A stretch of DNA of 64,000 bases from Candidatus Palauibacter australiensis (GCA_026705295.1 JAPPBA010000136.1:961-64960), one strand, 5' to 3'; shown: positions 10,379-27,262, counted from the stretch's first letter. Program-made: numbers and translations. The notes: generated by a model from the letters alone, not told the origin.

Positions 10379-11683
10379 TCAGGCGGGGATGCCGTGCTTC
10401 ACCGCGCGGGTCATCGCGTCGACGAAGCGGTCGAGTTCCTCGAGCGTCGTATAGGTGGACGGCGAGATGCGGAGCCCCGTGAACTCCGCGTGGTTGATGC
10501 CGACCGTGAAGATCCGGTGCTCGTTCCACAGCCAGTTGCGGAGCGCGCTCGTGTCGATGCCCTCGACCTGGACGTTGGCGATCCCGCACGCGAAGCCCGG
10601 CTTGAGGCTCGTGTTGAGCCGCACGCGGTCGTGCTCTAGGAGTTGCTCGGCCCAGTAGTTCCGCAGGTGGACGAGACGCGCCTCCTTGCGCTCGCCGCCG
10701 ACGAGCTGGTGGAAGGTGAGCGCTTCGCCGATGGCGAGGAAGTTGGCCTCCGGGTGGGTGCCGATCGCCTCGAACTTCCGGATGTCGTCGTCGCGGCTTT
10801 CCGCCGCGGCCTGCAGCGGCCAGATCTCGGGGATCTTCTCCCGCCTCACGTAGAGGAGTCCGGTGCCGACCGGGGCGTGCAGCCACTTGTGCAGGCTGAC
10901 GGCGTAGTTGTCGCAGTTCAACTCGGAGAGGGTAAAGTCGTGATGTGCAAGTGAATGTGCGCCGTCGACGAGGACGGGGATGCCGTAGCCGCGCGCCATC
11001 TCCACGACCTCGCGCACGGGGAGGATCTGTCCGGTGATGTTGATCATGTGGCACATCAGGATGAGCCGCGTGCGGTCGGTGATCTGCTCCTCGAACAGCC
11101 GCACGATTTCGGCTGGATCCTCGGCCGGGACCGGGATCTTGAACTGCTTCATGACGATCCCCTCGCGGCGCTCGCGCTGCTGGAAGGTCGTGATCATGCG
11201 CCCGTAGTCCTGGGTCGTCGTCACGACTTCGTCGCCGCGCTCCAGGTCATACCCGTTCTGGAGGATCTGGAGGCCCTCGGACGCGTTGCGCGTGATCGCG
11301 ACTTCCTCGGGGTCCACGTCCCACTGCCGGGCGAGCCGGGCGCGGACGCCCTCCCGCTGCGGCTCGAGGATCTGCCACCCGTTGTAGACCGGGATCTGGT
11401 TCGCGAAGTCGAGGTCCCGCTTCATCGCCTCGAGCACGTGGGCGGGCGTCGGGCTCACGCCTCCGTTGTTGAGGTTGACGAGGGAACGGTCGGTGGTGAA
11501 CGCCTTCTGGATCTCGATCCAGAACTCCTCGTCCCGCGCGATCTCCTCCGGGGAGCCGGGCGTGCGGGACAGGTCGCGGGCCGCCGCGACTGCGGTGCTC
11601 CACTTCGTGGGAACGACGGTCATGGCTCCGGCTGCAGCGGCGGAGCCCCCGAGGCGGGCGAGGAATCGTCGGCGGGTAGGCAT
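10379..11683 (-). CDS. Tat-exported class-V aminotransferase-fold PLP enzyme (cysteine desulfurase / isopenicillin-N epimerase-like)
   Basis: 434 aa. Twin-arginine signal MPTRRRFLARLGGSAAAAGA. PLP-lysine context AVSLHKWLHAPVGTGLLY typical of class V aminotransferases. AGGAGG lies 5 nt upstream of ATG 11683. Confidence 0.85.
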   Translation of the reverse strand: MPTRRRFLARLGGSAAAAGAMTVVPTKWSTAVAAARDLSRTPGSPEEIARDEEFWIEIQKAFTTDRSLVNLNNGGVSPTPAHVLEAMKRDLDFANQIPVYNGWQILEPQREGVRARLARQWDVDPEEVAITRNASEGLQILQNGYDLERGDEVVTTTQDYGRMITTFQQRERREGIVMKQFKIPVPAEDPAEIVRLFEEQITDRTRLILMCHMINITGQILPVREVVEMARGYGIPVLVDGAHSLAHHDFTLSELNCDNYAVSLHKWLHAPVGTGLLYVRREKIPEIWPLQAAAESRDDDIRKFEAIGTHPEANFLAIGEALTFHQLVGGERKEARLVHLRNYWAEQLLEHDRVRLNTSLKPGFACGIANVQVEGIDTSALRNWLWNEHRIFTVGINHAEFTGLRISPSTYTTLEELDRFVDAMTRAVKHGIPA

Positions 11684-11785: not shown

Positions 11786-12349
11786 TCAGTCCGGCGCCGT
11801 GATCATGGCGAGGATCGGGTCGATCGCCTCGTCCGCCAGCGATTCGAGTTCCGCCGCGGTGCGGTTCTGGATCGGGTGCGGGACCCAGACGATGCCGGGC
11901 TCGAAGCCGAGCGAGCGCGACTGGCTGCGCGCGGCCTCCTCGAACTCCGTCGTGACGACGAAGCAGCCGGGGATCCCGCGTTCGTCGAGGTCTCTGAGGT
12001 CGTGCAGACCGCACGACGTGCAGGACCCTCAGTCGGCTAAGGCCTGCACCACCACATCGGCCTCCGTGGCGATCCTCTGCAGCAACCCGGTCGGCGCCCG
12101 CCGCGCGTTCGTCGGCTTGTCCGTGCGGATCGTCGCGATGCCTCGCGCTTCGAGGCGCGCCTTCACGTGGTCGAGGAACTCGTCGCTGCGCTGCTTGCCG
12201 ATCCCCTGGAGCGCGACCACGCGTCCTTCGAGAGATGGGGGAGGCGTGCGTCGAGGGCGCATCTCGGAGGCGAGTTCGGAAGTGGGGTCGTGCAGGACGG
12301 TCGTTCGCGCCGCCGGGGTTGCCGGGCTCGCCGGAGTCGAAGCGGTCAT
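11786..12349 (-). CDS. predicted selenoprotein with U-G-S-C motif (in-frame UGA at 12031-12029 read as Sec), 187 aa
   Basis: ATG 12349 overlaps the upstream stop (ATGA). 106 codons (...ATEADVVVQALAD) run to TGA at 12029-12031. The same frame then stays open for 80 codons (GSCTSCGLHDLRDLDERGIPGCFVVTTEFEEAARSQSRSLGFEPGIVWVPHPIQNRTAAELESLADEAIDPILAMITAPD) to TGA 11786-11788. About 75 of those 80 codons end in G/C. No usable start codon exists for an independent gene. A SECIS-like hairpin lies 11 nt after the UGA. Confidence 0.7.
11996..12020 (-). promoter_or_regulatory. SECIS-like recoding hairpin downstream of the in-frame UGA
   Basis: mRNA reads UGA-GGGUCCUGCAC-GUCGUGC-GGUCU-GCACGAC. There is a perfect 7-bp stem (12017-12011 with 12005-11999) and loop GGUCU. 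It is extendable by A-U and G-C pairs across one C.C mismatch (12020/11996). The 11-nt spacing and GGUCUGCAC loop/stem resemble the E. coli fdhF SECIS as I recall it. Confidence 0.55.
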
Positions 12350-13797
12350 GTCTCGATCTCTCTGGTGATGGGGTGTGAGTGCTGCCAGGCGCGGCCGCCG
12401 GGCCAGCCGGCCAGGATGGCGGAGTACAGTCCGGCCGCGCCGCCGGCCCGGGCGAGGAGCAGTCCCCCGGGCGGGAACTTGGGCACCCGGCGGCGCGCCT
12501 CCGAGTCCGGCACGCCCTCCGCGAGGCCTCCCGCGCCGCGCGCCACCTCGCTCAGCGGCCGCGTCGTCGCCTCGAGCAGCGCCTCGGTGATCCGCGCCCG
12601 GCCCCAGCCCGCTTCCCGGTAGATGCCGTAATGCTCGGGGGAGAGGAGGAGCACCGCGTGCGCCCACTCGCAGATCTTCGGGTGGCAAACGGCCAGCAGG
12701 CACGCGGCCAGGGACGCGGTCAGCTCCTCCGGCGTGCGCGAGCGCTGGTCCATGATCCCCTGCACGCCCTCGCCCTGGAAGAGGGTGACGGCGCTGGCCC
12801 CGCGCGGGAGGCCGCGCGAAACCGCGAGCGGCTCCCACTCCTCGTCCGATTCGTCCTCCGCGAAACAGAACGTGTACTTGCTCGGCGCGCCGAAGGTCGC
12901 GCGGTCGATCTCGCCGGGGCGGCCGCCGCCCACGTTGCGCACGATCAGGTTGAGGGCGCGCCCGATGGTCGCGTTGGCGCGGTTTCCCTGGCCGAGGACG
13001 TTGAGTCCCGCGTTCATCCCGATGCGGCGGGCGACGGGGCCGTTGACGATGATGAGAGGAGACGTGAAGCACGTGCTGCACAGGATCCCGTGCAGCGTGA
13101 AGCCGGGGTCGAGCGCCGCCTCGAGCGCCGCGAGCAGGACCGGCATGTACTCCGGCTTGCAGCCGGCGAGCACGGCGTTGATCGCGACCTTTTCCACCGT
13201 GCACTCCGCGTAGTCCGGCGGCACGGCCCCCACGACCTCGTCCGCAGCCCGGGGCGTGCCCGCGAGCATGCGCAGGATCCGCTCCGGGGTCGGCGGAACG
13301 ACGGGCAGCCCGTCCGTCCACCCGCGCTCGAAGCATGCCTCCAGGGCGTCCGCATGCGGTTCCAGCGCCACCTGCCGCGCTTCGATGCCGGTCTCCCCGA
13401 AGCGCGCCCGCAGCCGCTCCGCCGCGCCGGGTTCGACGGACCGCGAACCGCAGCCCGGCCGGAGCTCGGGCAGTTCCGCGCCCAGATCCGGCGTCGACGT
13501 CAGCTCGCGCCACTCGGCCCGGTTCCAGCCCACCACGCGGCCCGCCTCCTTCCCGTCCTCGAAGCGCACGAGCGTGGGGACCGTCTCGATCCCGAGGCGG
13601 AAGGAGTGTTCGAGTTCCGTGTCGTCGACCACACCGGAAAGCGCCGCGGGAAAGTCCGGATCGTCCTGGCTGAAGACGGCGAGCCCTCCGGGACGGCTCG
13701 CGAGCCGTTCGAGCACGGGTTCGACCAGCCGGCACGTGGGACAGTCGCGCTTCACGACGGCCGCGAGCCCCTCCTGCGGGAGCGGAACGTGTTCCAT
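12346..13797 (-). CDS. thioredoxin-fold domain fused to a ~350-aa uncharacterised domain (partner of the selenoprotein)
   Basis: ORF 12346..13854. ATG 13797 gives MEHVPLPQEGLAAVVKRDCPTCRLVEP...IETVPTLVRFEDGKEAGRVVGW (CxxC plus cis-Pro VPT thioredoxin signature). An alternative GTG start lies at 13854. The C-terminal domain has ERGWTDGLPVVPPT and a second CxxC (LCSTCF). Its stop overlaps the selenoprotein start. Confidence 0.75.
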   Translation of the reverse strand: MEHVPLPQEGLAAVVKRDCPTCRLVEPVLERLASRPGGLAVFSQDDPDFPAALSGVVDDTELEHSFRLGIETVPTLVRFEDGKEAGRVVGWNRAEWRELTSTPDLGAELPELRPGCGSRSVEPGAAERLRARFGETGIEARQVALEPHADALEACFERGWTDGLPVVPPTPERILRMLAGTPRAADEVVGAVPPDYAECTVEKVAINAVLAGCKPEYMPVLLAALEAALDPGFTLHGILCSTCFTSPLIIVNGPVARRIGMNAGLNVLGQGNRANATIGRALNLIVRNVGGGRPGEIDRATFGAPSKYTFCFAEDESDEEWEPLAVSRGLPRGASAVTLFQGEGVQGIMDQRSRTPEELTASLAACLLAVCHPKICEWAHAVLLLSPEHYGIYREAGWGRARITEALLEATTRPLSEVARGAGGLAEGVPDSEARRRVPKFPPGGLLLARAGGAAGLYSAILAGWPGGRAWQHSHPITREIET

Positions 13798-13863
13798 GCC
13801 GCAACTTCTCGGCCGGACCCGGTGCGGGCAACGAGCACCACAAAGTGTCGTCACGACGACCGA

Positions 13864-13891
13864 AGTAGTTATGCGGCGTAGTAGTTATGCG
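13864..13891. promoter_or_regulatory. 12-bp direct repeat (AGTAGTTATGCG x2) in divergent promoter region
   Basis: AGTAGTTATGCG occurs at 13864-13875 and again at 13880-13891 (16-bp period). The patch is AT-richer and lies between the Trx-fusion/selenoprotein operon (-) and the LuxR gene (+, ATG 13963). Confidence 0.35.
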
Positions 13892-13962
13892 ACCAGCCGG
13901 ATTCCGGCCGTGGCGCAGCTTGTTCCACGCCGCGTTTTCTCTCCCAAAATTGGTGGTGTTCC

Positions 13963-15171
13963 GTGGACGCCCCATGGCCCATTCTGGGAGCCGCCGGAAT
14001 GGAGAGGACGGGAAGACGGAAAATTGATTCGCAGGACAGGTTCGAGCGCACCGTGGCGTCGTTGTACGGCGCCGCGCTGGACGATGGGGCGTGGGTCTCG
14101 GCGGCCGGGGCGATCAACGACCTGCTCCGGATCAGCGGCCACGGCCTGACGTTCGCGGATCCGTGCCAGACCGAGCCCGAGATCTTCTTCAACCGGTTCT
14201 TCGTCGGCGCGGAACACCGGATGGACCTGGAGCTCCTGTATTTTCGCGACTGCTACTGGCGCGATGAAGCGATTCCGCGGCTCTACGCACTCGGCGACGG
14301 CGATTTCGTCTACCGGTCGGAACTCTATACCGACCGGGAGAAGGAGACGTCTCCCGCGTACAACGAGTTCCGGCACATCGCGAAGTCGCAGGACGGGCTC
14401 TTCCTCGCGCTCGACGGGCTGGACGGCTGCGGCGTCGTCTGGTCCATCGGCGACTCCGTCGAACGGGGAGGCTGGGGGCAGGATCAGATCCGGGCCATCC
14501 GCCGACTCGCGCCTCATCTGCGCCAGTTCGCGCGCATCCGTCGTGCGCTGGCCGATGCCAGGGCGCTGGGCGCGTCGCTTGCCGAGCTACTGGAAAGCGG
14601 GCGGTCGGGGGTCATCCAGCTGGACCGCCGCGGACGCATCCTGGAGGCGAACGACCGGGCCCGGGCCGTCCTGGCGAAACGCGACGAGCTCCGCGACGAG
14701 GGCGGCGTGCTCGCGGTCGGAACTCAGACGGAGCACGCGGAACTGCAGCACCTGCTCGCGCGCGCGCTGCCCGTTTACGGCGCCCGGGGGGCCGGCGGCA
14801 CGATGAAGATCACGCGCCGCCGTGCCGGGACGCCGCTGGTCCTTGAAATCCACCCCGTCCAGAAGACGGGTACGGACGCTCGTTCGTGGGAGGTCGGCGC
14901 GCTGGCGCTGATCGTCGACCCGATCGCCCGTCCCCGGGTGGATCCCGGCTTGCCGGCGATGGCCTGGGGGTTGACGCCTGCGGAGAGCCGTGTGGCGGTG
15001 GCGGTGGCGACCGGCCAGACGCCAGCCGGCGTCGCGGCCGAACTGGGGTGCGCGGAGAGCATCGTGCGCACACACCTGAAGCGGGTCTACCGCAAGCTCG
15101 GAGTCCGCAGGCAGACCGAACTCGTGCGCAGGGTTCTGTCGCTCGAAGCCCTGCGGGGATCCTTCCGCTAG
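13963..15171 (+). CDS. LuxR-family helix-turn-helix transcriptional regulator
   Basis: 402 aa. The C-terminal LTPAESRVAVAVATGQTPAGVAAELGCAESIVRTHLKRVYRKLGVRRQTELV matches the LuxR/GerE-type HTH. The N-terminal sensor region is not recognisable. Confidence 0.8.
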   Translation: MDAPWPILGAAGMERTGRRKIDSQDRFERTVASLYGAALDDGAWVSAAGAINDLLRISGHGLTFADPCQTEPEIFFNRFFVGAEHRMDLELLYFRDCYWRDEAIPRLYALGDGDFVYRSELYTDREKETSPAYNEFRHIAKSQDGLFLALDGLDGCGVVWSIGDSVERGGWGQDQIRAIRRLAPHLRQFARIRRALADARALGASLAELLESGRSGVIQLDRRGRILEANDRARAVLAKRDELRDEGGVLAVGTQTEHAELQHLLARALPVYGARGAGGTMKITRRRAGTPLVLEIHPVQKTGTDARSWEVGALALIVDPIARPRVDPGLPAMAWGLTPAESRVAVAVATGQTPAGVAAELGCAESIVRTHLKRVYRKLGVRRQTELVRRVLSLEALRGSFR

Positions 15172-15359
15172 TCGGCAAGCCGCCGCAGGGGCTTCGTCAG
15201 CCTCCGAGCGGGATCACGACCCTATGGCAGAGAGTCGATCCGCCATCGGAGCGTGTCCGGGCACTGCGCGGGCGTTGACCGGGTGGGGGACTGAACGGAG
15301 ATTTGTGCAGGCGTGTTGTGAAGGGATGTGAAGGTGATATGCAGGGTTTGTTGCGCCGC

Positions 15360-15389
15360 GATGGACCTGCGATGGACCCGTGATGGACC
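15360..15389. promoter_or_regulatory. three direct GATGGACC repeats at 11-bp spacing upstream of the amidohydrolase operon
   Basis: GATGGACC at 15360-15367, 15371-15378 and 15382-15389, which is 23-52 nt upstream of ATG 15412. Upstream there is also TGTGAAGG x2 at 15317-15324 and 15327-15334. Confidence 0.3.
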
Positions 15390-15411
15390 CTCGGGGAAGG
15401 ATGTATCTCTC

Positions 15412-17121
15412 ATGAACCGCACCGCACTCGCGCGCCGGCTGGCGGGCGGGGTCGTTCCGGGGCTGCTCCTCGCGTCGCTGTCGGGCCTTGCCGCTCCGGC
15501 GCCCGCCGACGCGCAGTACATGCCGAGCCAGGCCCCGGTGCCTCCCCCGTTCTTCGCCCTCCAGAACGCGCGCATCGTGACCGGCACGGGCGCCGTGATC
15601 GAGAACGGCACCGTCGTCATCGCCAACGGCCTCATCGAGGCGGTCGGAGCCGATGTCGAAGTCCCCGGCGACGCATGGCTGATCGACGTCTCGGGCCTGA
15701 CCGTCTACCCCGGCCTGTTCGACGGGCTGTCCCGGATCGGGATGGCCTCGCAGGTGGGGAATCCGGGCGGCGGGGGAGGCAACCCCTTCGCCGCGTTTGT
15801 CGAGCAGGCGAACCAGCCCCGCACCGTGGGGCCCGAGGACCGTCCGGCGACGAACTCCTGGGTCAACGCGGCCGACATGCTGGACCCGGATTCCGACGAC
15901 ATCGAGACGTGGCGGAGCGGCGGGTTCACGAACGCGCTCGTGGCGCCCGATGACGGGATCGTGACGGGGCAGGGCGTCGTGGTGAACCTCGCGGGCGACG
16001 AGCAGGAGATGGTCGTGAAGGCGCCCGCCGCTCTCCGCGTGACGATGAGCGGAGCCGGAGGGTTCCGGAGCTTCCCGGGTTCCCTCATGGGCGTCATCGC
16101 CTACATCCGGCAACTGTACCTGGACGCGGATCACAGCCAGCAGTACGAGGCGCGCTACACGGCCAACCCGAGCGGCCAGCCGCGGCCCACCTACGACCGG
16201 GCGCTCGGTCCGATCCAGGACGCGATCGCCGCGGGGTGGCCGACCGTGATGCCGGCGAACGAGGTGCGGCAGATCCGGCGCGCGATCAAGCTCGGGCGCG
16301 ACACCGGCGCGCGGCCGGTCCTCCAGGGCGCGCACGAGGCGTACGGACTCGCCGGCGAGATCGCGGCGGCCGGCGCCCAGGTGCTCGTGAACGCCGATTG
16401 GCCGGAGCGGAACCGCGATGCGGATCCGGAAGCCGACGAATCGCTCTCGTCGCTGAAGCGCCGCGCCTATGCGCCGACGACGCCGGCCCGGCTCGAGGAG
16501 GCGGGCGTCGAATGGGCCTTCTACAGCGGCTCGGCCGGGAGCCCCCGCGCCATGATGGAGAAGGTGCGGACGGCGATCGAGAACGGACTCTCCGAGGAGG
16601 CGGCGCTGGAGGCGCTCACCGTCGCGCCCGCCCGCATCTACGGCGTGGACGCGATGCTCGGCTCCGTCGAGGCGGGCAAGATCGCGAACCTCGTCGTGAC
16701 CGACGGCCCGCTGTTCGACGAGGACACCGACATCCGCATGGTGTTCGTCGACGGCCACAGGTTCGAGGAGGAAGCACCGGAGCCGCGGCCGACGGAGCCC
16801 CCGGCGGTCGACATGAACGGCACCTGGCTCCTCTCCCTGAACAACGACTCGCAGGAGGCGACGGCTGAACTCGAGGTGTCGGAGGACGGCACGATTTCCG
16901 GCGTCATCCAGGGCGAGCGCGGGGAGCAGCAGATCACCGACGGCTGGGTGAGCGGCAACGAGTTCAGCATTACGGCCTCGGCCACGATGGGGCCGGGCAT
17001 GGACGTGGAGATCGTCTACACCGGCACCGTCGAGGGCGATGCGATCGAGGGGAACGCTTCCTTCGGAGGCATGCGCAACATGGACTTCACGGGCACGAGG
17101 CCCGGGGGAGGTGTCCGATGA
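15412..17121 (+). CDS. amidohydrolase-family protein, secreted (HxH motif degenerate)
   Basis: Internal ATG 15412 gives MNRTALARRLAGGVVPGLLLASLSGLAAPAPADAQ (signal peptide). Homologous in layout to the next two genes (IVIANGLIEAVG...GLTVYPGLFDGLSRIG), but the canonical metal-binding H-x-H is replaced by G-L-S. Confidence 0.75.
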   Translation: MNRTALARRLAGGVVPGLLLASLSGLAAPAPADAQYMPSQAPVPPPFFALQNARIVTGTGAVIENGTVVIANGLIEAVGADVEVPGDAWLIDVSGLTVYPGLFDGLSRIGMASQVGNPGGGGGNPFAAFVEQANQPRTVGPEDRPATNSWVNAADMLDPDSDDIETWRSGGFTNALVAPDDGIVTGQGVVVNLAGDEQEMVVKAPAALRVTMSGAGGFRSFPGSLMGVIAYIRQLYLDADHSQQYEARYTANPSGQPRPTYDRALGPIQDAIAAGWPTVMPANEVRQIRRAIKLGRDTGARPVLQGAHEAYGLAGEIAAAGAQVLVNADWPERNRDADPEADESLSSLKRRAYAPTTPARLEEAGVEWAFYSGSAGSPRAMMEKVRTAIENGLSEEAALEALTVAPARIYGVDAMLGSVEAGKIANLVVTDGPLFDEDTDIRMVFVDGHRFEEEAPEPRPTEPPAVDMNGTWLLSLNNDSQEATAELEVSEDGTISGVIQGERGEQQITDGWVSGNEFSITASATMGPGMDVEIVYTGTVEGDAIEGNASFGGMRNMDFTGTRPGGGVR

Positions 17122-18539
17122 GACATCCGATGAGAGATCCGAGGACACGGGTTGCCGGCCGGGTCGGCGCCGGGTGCCTGGCGCTCGGTCTCGCGCTCGG
17201 GATTCCGGGCGGGGCCGCGGCTCAGGAGCAGCCCATCCTGATCACGGGCGCGACGATTCTCACCGCGGCGGAAGCCGGGAGGATCGAGGACGGCGCCGTC
17301 CTGTTCCAGAACGGGCGCATCGTCGCCGTCGGGCCGGCCTCCGAGGTGGAGGCCCCCTCCGACGCGGTGGTCATCGACGGGACGGGCAAGTACATCACGC
17401 CCGGGATCGTTGACGCCCACTCCCACATCGCGGCCGACGCGATCAACGAGGGGGCGGTCTCCGTCTCCTCCATGGTGTCGATCCACGACGTGATCGACCC
17501 GACGGACGTCGCGATCTACCGCGAGGCGGCGGGCGGCACGACGACTTCGCACGTCATGCACGGGAGCGCGAACCCGATCGGCGGCAACAACGCCGTCATC
17601 AAGCACCGCTGGGGCGCGGACGCGCAGGGTCTCCTCTTCCAGGGCGCCCCGCCCACGATCAAGTTCGCGCTCGGCGAGAACCCGAAGCGGGCCGGGAGCC
17701 CCAACCTACCCGGCCACGAGGCGCGCTATCCCGCCTCCCGCATGGGGGTGATGGACGTGGTCCGGCAGGCCTTCATCGAGGCCAGCGAGTACAAGGCCGA
17801 GTGGGACACCTACCGGGCGCGCGTGGCCGATGGCGACCGCAGTGCGATCCCGCCACGCCGCAACCTGACCATGGATCCGCTGGTTGAAGTGCTCGAAGGC
17901 ACGCGCTACGTGCACGCGCACAGCTACCGCGCGGACGAGATCCTGCAGCTCATGCGGGTGGCCGAGGAGTTCGGCTTCCGCATCCACGTGTTCCAGCACG
18001 TGCTCGAAGGCTACCGCGTGGCCGACGAGATGGCCGAGCACGGGGCCCACGCCTCCACCTTCTCCGACTGGTGGGCGTACAAGATGGAGGCCTACGAGGC
18101 GATTCCGCACAACGCGGCGATCATGACGCAGCGCGGCGTCAACGTCTCCATCAACTCCGACAGCGGAGAAGAGGGACGGCACCTCAACCAGGAAGCCGCC
18201 AAGACGATGAAGTGGGGCGGTCTGAGCGAGGCCGAGGCCCTCGCCACCGTGACGATCAACGCGGCCTTCCAGCTGCTGATCGACGACCGCGTGGGTTCGC
18301 TGGAGGCGGGGAAGGACGCGGACATCGTCCTGTGGGAGAACTATCCGCTCTCCTCCTACGCCAGGGTCCGGACGACGTATATCGACGGCGAGGTGGTGTT
18401 CGACATCGACGCGGACCTGGCGATGCGGGCCGAGATCGAGGCCGAGAAGGCGGAGTTGAGAGAGATGCTCGGCGAGGCCGACGAGGACGACTCCGATAAC
18501 GAGCGCGAGCCGGATCGGCGGCCGGGAGGTGAACGATGA
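17118..18539 (+). CDS. amidohydrolase-family metallohydrolase (canonical HxH present)
   Basis: 473 aa with a signal peptide. GKYITPGIVDAHSHIA is the classical amidohydrolase metal-binding motif. The start overlaps the upstream stop (ATGA at 17118-17121). Confidence 0.9.
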   Translation: MRHPMRDPRTRVAGRVGAGCLALGLALGIPGGAAAQEQPILITGATILTAAEAGRIEDGAVLFQNGRIVAVGPASEVEAPSDAVVIDGTGKYITPGIVDAHSHIAADAINEGAVSVSSMVSIHDVIDPTDVAIYREAAGGTTTSHVMHGSANPIGGNNAVIKHRWGADAQGLLFQGAPPTIKFALGENPKRAGSPNLPGHEARYPASRMGVMDVVRQAFIEASEYKAEWDTYRARVADGDRSAIPPRRNLTMDPLVEVLEGTRYVHAHSYRADEILQLMRVAEEFGFRIHVFQHVLEGYRVADEMAEHGAHASTFSDWWAYKMEAYEAIPHNAAIMTQRGVNVSINSDSGEEGRHLNQEAAKTMKWGGLSEAEALATVTINAAFQLLIDDRVGSLEAGKDADIVLWENYPLSSYARVRTTYIDGEVVFDIDADLAMRAEIEAEKAELREMLGEADEDDSDNEREPDRRPGGER

Positions 18540-19900
18540 TGCGCATGGTGAAGTCGATAGTCGCGGCGGCGGCAGTCCTCGGCACCGTCGGGTTTGCCCT
18601 GCCGGCTGAGGCCGTCGCGCAGGACGGCGGCACGTTCGCGGTACAGGGAGCCACGATTCACACCGTCGCCGACGGCGTGATCGAGGGCGGCACGATCGTC
18701 ATCCGGGACGGCCGCATCATCGCGGTCGGACAGGACGTCGACATCCCGGCGGACGCCGAGATCATCGACGGGGAGGGGAAGCACGTCTTTCCCGGCATGA
18801 TCGATTCGTTCAGCTCGCTCGGGCTCACGGAGGTCGGGGCCGTCGCGGTGACGAACGACGCGAGCGAGCTGGGGCGCTGGAACCCGCATCTCAACGCGCA
18901 CACGGCGATCCACCCCGCCAGCGAGCACATCCCGGTCGCGCGCGCGAACGGGATCACGCACTCGCTGGTCGCGCCCGGCGGCGGCGGCCGCTTCGGCGGC
19001 GGCGGAGGTTCGGGCATCCAGGGTCAGGCCACGCTCGTCCACCTCGACGGCTGGACGGTGGAGGAGATGGAGATCGAGAAGACGGCGGCCATGATCATCG
19101 GCTGGCCCACGCTGTCGACGGGTTTCCGCGCCTTCGCCGGCTTCGGCCGCCCGGCCGGGGGCCGCTCCTTCCAGCGGGCGCAGGAGCGCTTCGACGAGGA
19201 AGTGGCGGAGATGGACTCGTGGTTCGTCGCCGCCGAGCACTACCGGCAGGCCGTGGCGTCCGGATCGAGCCGCGTGCCCCGCAACATCCAGCTCGAGCAC
19301 CTGTCGCGCGTCCTCGACCGGGGGATGAAGGTCATCGTGCGGGCGAACGGATGGCGCGAGATCGAGTCGGCCATCGAGTTCGCGGAGAAGTGGAACCTGG
19401 ACCTCACCATCGCGGGCGGGAACGGGGCGCGCGAGATCGCCGGCACGCTCGCCGAGAAGAACATCCCCGTGATCCTGGGGCCGGTGCAGCGGCTGCCGCA
19501 GGGCGAGGACACCGCGTACGACGATCCGAACACGCTGCCCGGCGTGCTGCACGAGGCGGGGGTCGAGATCGCGTTCGCGACCTTCAACTCGTCCGATGCG
19601 CGGACCCTGCCCTACGAGGCCGCGAACTCCGTGTCGTGGGGGCTCTCGAAGGAGGCGGCGCTGGAAGCGGTGACGCTGGGCCCGGCGCGCGTGCTGGGCG
19701 TGGACGACCGGCTTGGGTCGCTGGAAGTCGGGAAGGTGGGGAACCTGATCGTGACCGACGGGGATCCGCTCGAGATCACGACCCGGATCGAGTGGGTGTT
19801 CATCAAGGGCGTGCCGTCCGACCTGGACAACAAGCACGATAGCCTGTGGGAGGAATACAGGAACCGCCCGGCGCGGCGCGTGACCACGACGACGACCTAG
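18536..19900 (+). CDS. amidohydrolase-family protein, secreted (HxH motif degenerate)
   Basis: 454 aa with a signal peptide. GKHVFPGMIDSFSSLG sits at the position of the HxH motif. ATGA overlap with the preceding gene at 18536-18539. Confidence 0.8.
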   Translation: MMRMVKSIVAAAAVLGTVGFALPAEAVAQDGGTFAVQGATIHTVADGVIEGGTIVIRDGRIIAVGQDVDIPADAEIIDGEGKHVFPGMIDSFSSLGLTEVGAVAVTNDASELGRWNPHLNAHTAIHPASEHIPVARANGITHSLVAPGGGGRFGGGGGSGIQGQATLVHLDGWTVEEMEIEKTAAMIIGWPTLSTGFRAFAGFGRPAGGRSFQRAQERFDEEVAEMDSWFVAAEHYRQAVASGSSRVPRNIQLEHLSRVLDRGMKVIVRANGWREIESAIEFAEKWNLDLTIAGGNGAREIAGTLAEKNIPVILGPVQRLPQGEDTAYDDPNTLPGVLHEAGVEIAFATFNSSDARTLPYEAANSVSWGLSKEAALEAVTLGPARVLGVDDRLGSLEVGKVGNLIVTDGDPLEITTRIEWVFIKGVPSDLDNKHDSLWEEYRNRPARRVTTTTT

Positions 19901-24891: not shown

Positions 24892-27135
24892 TCAGGGGCT
24901 GCTGGTGTCGTCTCGAATCGCCTCGACGCGCCAGGCGAACTCCTCGTCGAGTTTCATGGCGGTGCCGATCTCCACGAACTGGACGTAGCCCTCGCGGTCC
25001 ACGAACCAGGTGGTTGGCCAGGCGTACACGCCGGCGCGGTCGACGTAGCCATCGTCCACCAGCACAGTGAAGTCGAAGTTGTTCTTCGCCAGGTACTCCT
25101 CGATCACGTCGTTCGTGCGGTCGTTGCTGATCGAGATCACGGCGACCTCGGCGTCGTCCCGGTAGCGTTCGTCGAACTTCTGGTATTCCGGCATCTCGAC
25201 GATGCACGGCCCGCACCACGTCCCCCAGAAGTGGAGTACGGCGATCTTCCCCTCGAGCTCCGCCGAGTCGATCATTTCACCGTCCAGCCGCGCGAGCGTG
25301 AACGGTTCGTACGTCCCCGCCGCCTCCACCCGCGACTCGAGGATGCGCTCGCGCCGCCGGTTCCGGTCGCGCTCGTCGAGCGTCGCGAGGTACTCCTCGA
25401 TCCCCTCGCGGCTCCCGTTCCGGCTCTCGTACAGGGCCTCGAGAGCGGCTTCATTGGGGTTCGCGCCCCGGCTGGCCCCGAATCCCGCGATGTAGGAATC
25501 CTCCGCCTGGTCCAGCCAGGCCGTGACCGCTTCGGCGTCTCCCTCCTCCTCTGCCTCCGCGGCCATGTGCTCATAGACCTGCCCCAGATGGTAGCGGACG
25601 TCGCGGGTGTCCTCGGAAATCGCCAGCGCGCGCTCGAGCGTGTGACGCCCATCCTCCACACGGCCAGCCTTGAAGTGGGCCCACCCGATCACGTCGTACG
25701 TGTCGGTGAGGAAGCTGCGGAGCAGTTGATCGAACTCGCCTTCCGTGTCGAAGCGGTCTCGCGACTCGTTCAATCGCTCCAGCATGACGGGCACGCCCTC
25801 GCGGACGATGTCGACCGCTTCCAGCGCGTAGGGCGTGTGATCGATCATGGCGAGCGGGGCCGCCCCGAACGTGATGTGAGGATTCATGGTTTCGTGTGCG
25901 GCGAGTCCCCGCACCGCGTCGGCGAAGTCCTCCACCGGAAGCGGATCCATGGACCTGAGGGCGAAATACAGAGTGATGTAGGCCGTTCCCTTGTAGGTGT
26001 CGCTGTAAAGCGGCCGCTCCAGGTATTCGTGCACAGCGTCTCGTACGACGCCGAGCTGGGCGCGATGTTCGGGCGAGTCCGGGCCGTGCTCTTCCCGGAG
26101 TTCGCTCAGCTTGTCGTTCGCGCTGCGCACCTCGCCCAGATAGATGAGCGATGCGTGATAGCTGGCCGGGTCGCTCTCGACGATCTGCGTTTCGAGTTGA
26201 GCGGCGCGCTCTTCATCGCCCATCTCCCGGTACATTGCGGCGATGACTCCAAGCCCGCGCAGGGTCTCCGGGGCGGCATCACGGAACGCCGCCATGCTGG
26301 CCCTGACGGCTGGGCCTCGCTCGTCCTGCGGGAGAAGTTCCGACATCCACAGGCCGCGCCAGTGCTGTCGTCGAACCTCCGACGATCCAGGCGCAAGCTC
26401 GAGAGCCGCGTCCATGAGTGAGGTCCACTCATCCATGCGGCGGGCGTTATAGGCCTCGTTGGCCAACCTGGTGTATCCCAGTACGTGGTCCGGAAACCGT
26501 TCCTTGAACTCCGCCCACGTCGCTCGGCTGGAGTCCGCCCACGTCGGGTCGTTCAGCATGTAGCGGGTCTGTGACTCCAGCTCGGCCTGCATGCGCAGTA
26601 TCTCCGGCCAACCGCGGGTCTCCTCATCGAGCCCGTCGAGGAACTCTCGCGCCGCATCGAAGTCGTCCCGGCTCAACGCCCGCAGGTAGAGGAAGGCGAA
26701 CTCGGGTTGCGGAGAGGCCTCCCACGCCTGCAGGGCCATCTCGTGCGCCGGTCCGGCCTCGTTGTCGACCAGGTGGGCGTAGGCCCGCACATAGAGACCC
26801 CACGGATTGTCAGGGTCATCCGCCAGGATCGCGTCGGCTTGCTCGTGGACCTCCTTCGACAGTCCCCAGCCCACGAGCTGGTAGGCGTAGAGGCCTCGGA
26901 GTTCCGCGTCGTCCGGCGCGCGGGCGACCCACTCTTCGCCGAACAGCTTGCCGGCCTCGAAGGTGCGCAGCCGGGCATGGTCGCGAAGCTCCTGCTTCGC
27001 CGCCGCAAGTTCTTCGGCCGTGTAGTCGGGCGGAGCGGCACCGTCCCCGCACGCTCCGAGCAGCGCGCCCGCAAACACGACGAGCGGAAGAAAAGGTCCG
27101 ACGTTCGGGCCGGATCGGCGGGAACGCGTCGACAT
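24892..27135 (-). CDS. lipoprotein with large helical/TPR-like domain fused to a C-terminal TlpA/ResA-like thioredoxin domain (paralog 2)
   Basis: Internal ATG 27135 is preceded by GGAGG. MSTRSRRSGPNVGPFLPLVVFAGALLGACGDGAAPPDY contains a lipobox. C-terminal VLHFWGTWCGPCIVEMPEYQKF. Colinear with paralog 1 over the full length, and the 3' ends are also similar at DNA level. Confidence 0.8.
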   Translation of the reverse strand: MSTRSRRSGPNVGPFLPLVVFAGALLGACGDGAAPPDYTAEELAAAKQELRDHARLRTFEAGKLFGEEWVARAPDDAELRGLYAYQLVGWGLSKEVHEQADAILADDPDNPWGLYVRAYAHLVDNEAGPAHEMALQAWEASPQPEFAFLYLRALSRDDFDAAREFLDGLDEETRGWPEILRMQAELESQTRYMLNDPTWADSSRATWAEFKERFPDHVLGYTRLANEAYNARRMDEWTSLMDAALELAPGSSEVRRQHWRGLWMSELLPQDERGPAVRASMAAFRDAAPETLRGLGVIAAMYREMGDEERAAQLETQIVESDPASYHASLIYLGEVRSANDKLSELREEHGPDSPEHRAQLGVVRDAVHEYLERPLYSDTYKGTAYITLYFALRSMDPLPVEDFADAVRGLAAHETMNPHITFGAAPLAMIDHTPYALEAVDIVREGVPVMLERLNESRDRFDTEGEFDQLLRSFLTDTYDVIGWAHFKAGRVEDGRHTLERALAISEDTRDVRYHLGQVYEHMAAEAEEEGDAEAVTAWLDQAEDSYIAGFGASRGANPNEAALEALYESRNGSREGIEEYLATLDERDRNRRRERILESRVEAAGTYEPFTLARLDGEMIDSAELEGKIAVLHFWGTWCGPCIVEMPEYQKFDERYRDDAEVAVISISNDRTNDVIEEYLAKNNFDFTVLVDDGYVDRAGVYAWPTTWFVDREGYVQFVEIGTAMKLDEEFAWRVEAIRDDTSSP

Positions 27136-27262
27136 CGCACACCTCCGGGGCAGGGGCAGGGACAGCCGCAGGCTGAGCCTCTCAACCTGTAAGGACGTTG
27201 ACATGACGAAAAGGGTTTTCCGCCGTTGAGGTTCCGTTGAGCCGGGGGCGGATATCCGTGGT

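Follow-up and report, generated by a model that had tools for sequence, protein, structure and literature searches.

A probable UGSC-family selenoprotein gene cut short by annotation in Gemmatimonadota, and its thioredoxin-domain partner

A reading frame that is open on both sides of a UGA

The subject of this report is a short gene on the minus strand of a 64,000-nucleotide (nt) stretch of Candidatus Palauibacter australiensis (GCA_026705295.1, JAPPBA010000136.1:961-64960; "the window" hereafter), whose annotation ends at an in-frame UGA that very probably encodes selenocysteine (Sec), making this a selenoprotein gene of the UGSC family. Directly upstream and on the same strand lies a longer gene for a protein with a thioredoxin domain, here called the partner, whose stop codon overlaps the start of the UGSC gene as ATGA (12349-12346), and a hairpin of the kind that forms a bacterial selenocysteine insertion sequence (SECIS) follows the UGA (Table 1). 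In the source-contig record, that of an 86-kb metagenomic scaffold, the gene is called as 106 amino acids (aa), followed by a gap of 345 nt.

Table 1. Features of the window, with the UGSC gene and its parts first and neighboring genes last
Feature	Coordinates	Strand	Basis or remarks
UGSC-family selenoprotein gene (probable)	11786..12349	-	187 codons + stop; translation, PF24696, NF041046, Cys homologues, orthologues
Start codon ATG of the UGSC gene	12349-12347	-	Translation
In-frame UGA, putative Sec codon 107 (U107 in D-U-G-S-C-T-S-C)	12029..12031	-	Cys (TGY) in homologues, TGA in orthologues
True stop TGA of the UGSC gene (as predicted)	11788-11786	-	Translation
Putative SECIS core hairpin GUCGUGC-GGUCU-GCACGAC	11999..12017	-	Sequence, -11.6 kcal/mol, Sec/Cys contrast, RNAalifold, fdhF register
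Extended lower SECIS stem, imperfect, lineage-specific	11988..12028	-	Minimum free energy fold, -21.8 kcal/mol
Partner gene, 483 aa, thioredoxin domain + ~360-aa domain	12346..13797	-	Exact product on source-contig record; synteny
LuxR/GerE-type regulator gene, divergent from the partner-UGSC pair	13963-15171	+	
Class V aminotransferase, cysteine desulfurase-like	10379-11683	-	Best NCBIfam match periplasmic PvdN, far below cut-off
Three consecutive amidohydrolase-family genes (597, 473, 454 aa), ends overlapping or abutting	15328-19900	+	
770-aa protein, tetratricopeptide (TPR) repeats + ResA-like thiol:disulfide oxidoreductase domain, W-C-G-P-C	24892-27204	-	

Translated from its ATG, the minus strand gives 106 codons (...VVVQALAD) before the UGA, after which the same frame continues for 80 sense codons (GSCTSCGLHD...LAMITAPD) as far as a second TGA. 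A preliminary description of the window, made from its sequence, had pointed to these 80 further codons, and all of its sequence statements hold: about 5 of the 80 codons end in A or T, which corresponds to a G+C content at third codon positions (GC3) of 0.94, and the segment lacks a usable start codon of its own, with no open reading frame (ORF) of at least 40 aa beginning inside it. This TGA is the sole one in the window that stands in frame with coding signal on both sides and without a start codon just downstream; wherever else a TGA lay in frame between two stretches of coding signal, it marked an ordinary gene junction closely followed by a start codon. We also set aside a 648-aa "ORF" that ends at the Sec codon (12029-13975, minus strand), which arises as a shadow frame from the high-GC partner gene and is not a real long protein. 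Translation of the 80 codons, which would give a 187-residue protein containing D-U-G-S-C-T-S-C, is strongly supported by the comparisons that follow. Gene callers end the gene at this UGA, and what is therefore recorded both here and in related Gemmatimonadota (Candidatus Palauibacter-like) is a hypothetical protein of 103-107 aa and an "empty" gap of 345 nt.

Family relationships and selection on the downstream frame

Scored with U written as C, the read-through protein matches the Pfam model of the UGSC family (PF24696) at 115 bits, with a threshold of 25, and the match runs across the junction from residue 19 to 184, or positions 2-171 of the 172 in the profile. The NCBIfam model NF041046, "UGSC family (seleno)protein," which is the curated family that the preliminary description had named, is matched at 120.8 bits over residues 42-183, again across the junction. 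A conserved PHP motif lies in the post-UGA half of the family match. Among 5.8 billion proteins searched, the relatives with 80-95% identity derive from Gemmatimonadota metagenome-assembled genomes (MAGs) and are 103-107 aa long, every one annotated as ending in ...ALAD, just before the position of the TGA in the window gene, while those with 47-60% identity are 170-190 aa long and carry DCGSCTSC over the junction, with a Cys exactly at the UGA column. All 19 full-length Cys homologues share DCGSC, and the closer 16 share DCGSCTSC throughout; distant members lack the third Cys (DCGSCSAAT, DCGSCSLWT, DCGSCTSGS). The homologues spanning the junction that the preliminary description had called for are thus found, both as end-to-end matches to family models and as full-length proteins with Cys at the UGA column. 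It had named as a refutation homologues that terminate at ALAD with the downstream 80 codons not conserved; close relatives are annotated as ending there, yet their downstream frame is conserved.

We read four orthologous Gemmatimonadota loci, three of them on contigs of 3.7-4.1 Mb, the most distant being the 60%-identical L205. All four keep the TGA, 80-86 open codons behind it and the protein sequence. The ratio of nonsynonymous to synonymous divergence (dN/dS) of the post-UGA segment is 0.16-0.30 against the three close orthologues and 0.50 against the 60%-identical one, and on this comparison the post-UGA frame is under purifying selection. Against the close orthologues L003, L204 and L206, synonymous divergence (dS) is 0.20-0.32 after the UGA (window 11789-12028) and 0.63-0.83 in the preceding 80 codons (12032-12271); a 2- to 3-fold lower value after the UGA, in what is a small sample, would fit an extra constraint at the RNA level.

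Sec-forms are also widespread in metagenomes. Scanning public contigs with the degenerate DNA pattern (L/V)-x-D-TGA-G-S-C-T-S-C returned at least 120 loci; among the matches listed, 119 of 120 are true homologues, and 78-106 sense codons follow the TGA on each contig not cut by its end.

A hairpin that distinguishes Sec-forms from Cys-forms

The core hairpin starts after a spacer of exactly 11 nt behind the UGA (GGGUCCUGCAC, 12028-12018). Its arms (12017-12011 and 12005-11999) pair perfectly over 7 bp around the loop at 12010-12006, which places G23 and U24, counting the U of UGA as 1, at 12009-12008. A spacing of 11 nt together with G23/U24 is a published rule, and the two loop bases are reported to be critical in E. 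coli (PMC8659212), where TGA, 11 nt and GGTTGCAGGTCTGCACC occur at 100% identity in fdhF of 5419 of 5426 genomes. The preliminary description had noted the perfect, extendable 7-bp stem and its distance from the UGA as we find them, and its account of the fdhF SECIS is correct. When nt 1-46 following the U of UGA are folded for minimum free energy, a longer imperfect stem appears, whose lower pairs are not conserved across the UGSC family. Judged by itself, the local 71-nt fold stands out just modestly from shuffled sequence (z = -2.03; 9 of 200 shuffles fold equally well), and the significance of the hairpin must therefore come from comparison with related sequences.

For this comparison the Sec set comprised 118 distinct sequences, namely 117 among the matches listed in the metagenome scan and the window gene, and the Cys set 59 distinct genes obtained by scanning a single genome for each species with the pattern DCGSCTSC, which returns Cys-forms only; the metagenome pattern constrained none of the hairpin sites tested. 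Codon +7 is NGT in all 118 Sec-forms and in 1 of 59 Cys-forms (p = 2e-46), codon +8 ends in G in 118/118 compared to under half of the Cys-forms (p = 2e-21), codon +5 is NCG in 114/118 compared to 21/59 (p = 4e-19), and codon +6 is TGC in 118/118 compared to 48/59 (p = 3e-6), whereas the control codon +3 does not differ (TGC in 92/118 and 51/59, p = 0.23); these are Fisher p-values for mutually related sequences, and their overstated independence is to be counted with the points against our reading that are gathered below. The contrast between Sec-forms and Cys-forms is nevertheless clear despite this kinship.

The pairing follows the same division. In the 118 Sec-forms, pairing is 100% at the five inner positions of the stem and NGUNN is the loop in every case, and both features are lost in the 59 Cys-forms; mean hairpin energy is -10.0 kcal/mol in the former and -3.7 in the latter, and an independent run of RNAalifold predicted the hairpin for the Sec set only. 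Pair 17-29 varies among Sec-forms (G-C in 79, G-U in 35, A-U in 3, C-G in 1). In L205, the most distant Gemmatimonadota orthologue, and in L136, TCG has become TCA together with a change of CAC to CAT, a compensatory replacement of G-C by A-U within the hairpin. The preliminary description had proposed following the hairpin through orthologues and had named its loss beside a retained TGA as a sign against it: the hairpin is kept in each of the 118 distinct Sec-forms, with loop GU invariant, and it is absent from the Cys-forms.

Selenocysteine and other readings of the UGA

In the mechanism that we propose, SelB carrying Sec-tRNA(Sec) would bind the hairpin and deliver selenocysteine at the UGA. 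From the conserved UGA, the SECIS and the selection on the downstream frame we infer that the organism is capable of Sec insertion. Genes for the machinery adjoin the partner-UGSC module in about 10 loci of other organisms. We note that selA, selB or selD lies within a few kilobases of the module in L161, L165, L062, L079, L081, L087, L103, L143, L085 and L126, with selA-selB right after the module in L087 and selD, selB and selA at L062, a Cys-form locus.

Several observations weigh against assigning this gene to the UGSC selenoproteins. ARAGORN found no tRNA gene, and hence no tRNA-Sec, in the 64-kb window, and tblastn searches with E. coli SelA, SelB and SelD returned none from the window or from the 20-kb flanks at the four orthologous loci. 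The curated NF041046 cut-off of 125 bits is not reached by the read-through protein, whether U is written as C (120.8 bits) or as X (113.3 bits); the Cys homologues of its clade score 113-122 bits, each tested member falling below 125, and other Sec-form clades reach 128-162 bits apart from one (L131 type) at 123. The window hairpin is without the bulged U17 that E. coli SelB needs (PMC8659212), and it matched no Rfam family at gathering or permissive thresholds; the sole match at the permissive threshold, a snoRNA with E = 2.2, we regard as chance.

Were the TGA a genuine stop, the product would be a protein of 106 residues and the next 240 nt a decaying remnant or noncoding spacer. All public annotations of close relatives give hypothetical proteins of 103-107 aa, in agreement with such a stop, and TGA is also the ordinary stop of the partner gene and of the UGSC gene's own end. 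The frame nevertheless stays open in the four orthologues (80-86 codons) and in about 100 metagenomic genes among the matches listed (78 codons or more), dN/dS downstream is 0.16-0.30, and the downstream half matches the C-terminal half of the family models including the PHP motif, conservation data that make termination at this codon very unlikely. It is also improbable, if slightly less so, that a near-cognate tRNA decodes the UGA as a standard amino acid such as Trp or Cys while the hairpin merely slows termination. That Sec machinery was not found in the window speaks for such readthrough; the SelB-type 11-nt spacing and invariant G23/U24 (PMC8659212), the loss of these SelB-type features exactly where the codon is Cys, the adjoining selA, selB and selD genes in other organisms and the standing of UGSC as an accepted selenoprotein family (PMC2398784, PMC13188914) all speak for Sec. 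Finally, the hairpin might be a by-product of the conserved peptide C-T-S-C-x-x-H-D with no function at the RNA level, and several stem positions are indeed set by amino acids, pairs 16-30, 18-28 and 19-27 being 100% paired in Cys-forms too. We find this hardly credible, given that NCG, TGC, NGT and the third-position G of the next codon are fixed in Sec-forms only and free in Cys-forms, that the loop GU occurs in 1 of 59 Cys-forms and that compensatory A-U and C-G variants are present.

The partner gene and a possible selenol/thiol relay

All 80 Cys-form loci have the partner directly upstream of the UGSC gene in the same orientation, and so do nearly all Sec-form loci whose flanks are long enough, an adjacent and co-oriented pairing that extends to about 170 loci from many phyla; the Cys-form loci with a partner come from Alphaproteobacteria, Burkholderiales, Bacteroidota, Acidimicrobiia and others. 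When flanking ORFs of 203 loci were clustered, no conserved neighbor emerged besides the partner, and TrxB-like genes occur near the module in 12 loci. The partner family holds more than 8000 clusters and is annotated only as "thioredoxin family protein," with no Pfam domain; the closest named relatives of the window's protein are from Candidatus Palauibacter. A structural model and Foldseek identify its N-terminal 105 residues as a thioredoxin fold with C19-P-T-C22. Each of the cysteines C19, C22, C116 and C311 is retained by at least 98% of 115 homologues (34-100% identity), as are many charged residues; C116 sits in an invariant P-G-C at the boundary between thioredoxin and large domains, and C311, likewise invariant, in F-C-F-A-E-D-E. 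For the large domain, Pfam and NCBIfam gave no match even at E = 1-10, and a PDB profile search with the partner returned thioredoxins only. Class I fumarase was rejected as an identity for this domain, the weak Foldseek match having a root mean square deviation of ~20 Å and hhalign against E. coli FumA giving a probability of 0.1%. Fusions of partner and UGSC were rejected too, since the in-frame stretches of 350-630 codons that extend upstream in 13 metagenomic loci are high-GC shadow frames. An "Unknown_1" domain fused to UGSC is described in PMC2398784.

For a 60%-identical Cys homologue, AlphaFold gives a confident model (predicted local distance difference test [pLDDT] score 92.3) that has five beta-alpha units and places Cys96, the equivalent of Sec, between strand 3 (88-94) and helix 3 (97-112). 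The nearest PDB structures to the UGSC model are flavodoxin-like folds, at template modeling (TM) scores of 0.4-0.5, so that the predicted UGSC fold is flavodoxin-like and not thioredoxin-like; the "Trx-like fold" suggested for UGSC in PMC2398784 finds no support in the AlphaFold model. A UxxCxxC motif defines GrdB, GrdF and GrdH (PMC6778437, PMC13188914), and the U-G-S-C-T-S-C of the window protein fits it; the NCBIfam models of GrdB and GrdF match 15 of 19 UGSC members weakly (E = 1e-4 to 1e-2), always over the region of the UGSC motif. A profile-profile alignment by hhalign with PrdB-like reads from the supplement to Global Ocean Sampling (GOS) places Sec on Sec (E = 6.5e-4).

On these grounds we tentatively propose that UGSC and its partner form a two-gene selenol/thiol relay module with UGSC as the small selenol subunit, a role that we think possible at somewhat under even odds. 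Sec107, which in the flavodoxin-like fold would lie where a beta-strand ends and a helix begins, would act as the attacking nucleophile, Cys110 would resolve the adduct to a selenenylsulfide, and the thioredoxin domain of the partner would reduce the latter, drawing on cellular thioredoxin reductase. Since the Sec site resembles that of selenoprotein B (UxxCxxC), the reaction may be a GrdB/PrdB-like reductive cleavage on the partner's large domain, which is rich in invariant charged residues. More doubtful, and in our judgment less likely than not, is the fuller picture of a two-subunit selenoenzyme for reductive bond cleavage with a built-in thioredoxin reductant, widespread in oceans, soils and host-associated settings, whose Sec site descended from, or converged on, that of selenoprotein B. 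In GrdE and PrdA, cleavage at a Cys yields a pyruvoyl group; more speculatively, the P-G-C116 of the partner could be a self-cleavage site of this kind.

Some of the evidence runs counter to such a selenoprotein B-like module. [quoted passage not shown] The U/C-x-x-C-x-x-C motif might instead bind a metal or an iron-sulfur cluster, possibly together with Cys116, Cys213 and Cys311 of the partner, with no selenenylsulfide cycling. CxxCxxC is a classic cluster-binding spacing, and beyond the thioredoxin motif of the partner three more of its cysteines are conserved, yet the third Cys is missing in distant family members, a Sec that opens UxxC where a helix begins is characteristic of redox nucleophiles, the partner includes a fused thioredoxin domain, and GrdB-type proteins use UxxCxxC for redox chemistry (PMC13188914). 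We consider metal or cluster binding unlikely.

Neighboring genes

The aminotransferase gene begins 102 nt past the true UGSC stop, with no terminator recognized between, and its product has a twin-arginine-like N-terminus (MPTRRRFLARLGG). It adjoins the UGSC gene only in the closest Gemmatimonadota genomes; as it is absent from L205 and all other phyla, we do not count it as part of the module. The regulator gene on the other side is also present in L204 and L206, and not in L003, L205 or outside the lineage, and the amidohydrolase trio is conserved beside the module in L003, a close Gemmatimonadota locus. The 770-aa protein matches the selenoprotein family "WAxxUGC_long" weakly (27.7 bits, cut-off 300) and is a Cys-form with no in-frame TGA.

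Implications

In 2007 a "UGSC-containing protein" from Hyphomonas neptunium and metagenomes was reported to be a selenoprotein, its function unknown (PMC1976440), and published work on the family dates back to 2007-2008 (PMC1976440, PMC2398784; Zhang and Gladyshev), its papers naming as hosts H. neptunium and a worm-symbiont deltaproteobacterium. The protein is reported to be among the most abundant selenoproteins of aquatic metagenomes, with no known function (PMC2398784, PMC13188914), and it is still without one in reviews of 2022 and 2026 (PMC9312934, PMC13188914). Given this history, the window gene as we read it is a mis-annotated addition to an already known selenoprotein family and not a new kind, and current knowledge is not overturned by these findings. 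Probably because the clade scores below the 125-bit cut-off of NF041046, its genes have been left as unnamed, truncated hypothetical proteins.

The annotation can be corrected: a 106-aa "hypothetical protein" and a 345-nt gap become one 187-aa selenoprotein gene, and the same truncation error is found in every close relative examined. Our result also indicates that this lineage of Gemmatimonadota decodes UGA as selenocysteine; a search of the literature on selenocysteine use in Gemmatimonadota found nothing. To what is known of the family we add the pairing with the partner, the flavodoxin-like predicted fold and a weak but recurrent similarity to selenoprotein B, so that the near-invariable partner gene, the fold and the GrdB/PrdB-like Sec site offer leads on the function of UGSC.

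Comparison with known systems

The window protein shares with the UGSC family the U/C-G-S-C at the same column, the alternation of Sec and Cys, a length of ~170-190 aa and a SECIS directly after the UGA, and differs in its origin from Gemmatimonadota and in belonging to a clade that lies under the NF041046 cut-off. Its hairpin is like the SECIS of E. coli fdhF in standing 11 nt after the UGA, in the identity of nt 22-30 (GGUCUGCAC) and in having G23/U24 in the apical loop, whereas the stem in the window is a perfect 7 bp without bulged U17, and what the UGSC family as a whole conserves is limited to 5 bp plus GU in the loop. In selenoproteins of the thioredoxin-fold UxxC type (Trx-like, Prx-like, DsbA-like) Sec likewise lies in a redox-type UxxC at a helix start, but UGSC is predicted to be a five-unit beta-alpha sandwich of flavodoxin-like type.

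The likeness to selenoprotein B (GrdB/GrdF/GrdH/PrdB; PF07355, TIGR01917/TIGR01918) consists in the order of a hydrophobic strand, UxxC(xxC), a helix and then a G-I-P-x-V strand, and in dependence on a thioredoxin-type reductant, which for UGSC is proposed. Selenoprotein B is longer, at 240-436 aa compared to ~180 aa for UGSC, which scores far under the cut-offs of those models; the UGSC partner is no pyruvoyl proprotein of the GrdE/PrdA type; and the hosts of UGSC include mostly aerobic lineages, not Stickland fermenters. The resemblance to selenoprotein B is one of possible mechanism for UGSC, and not membership of that family.

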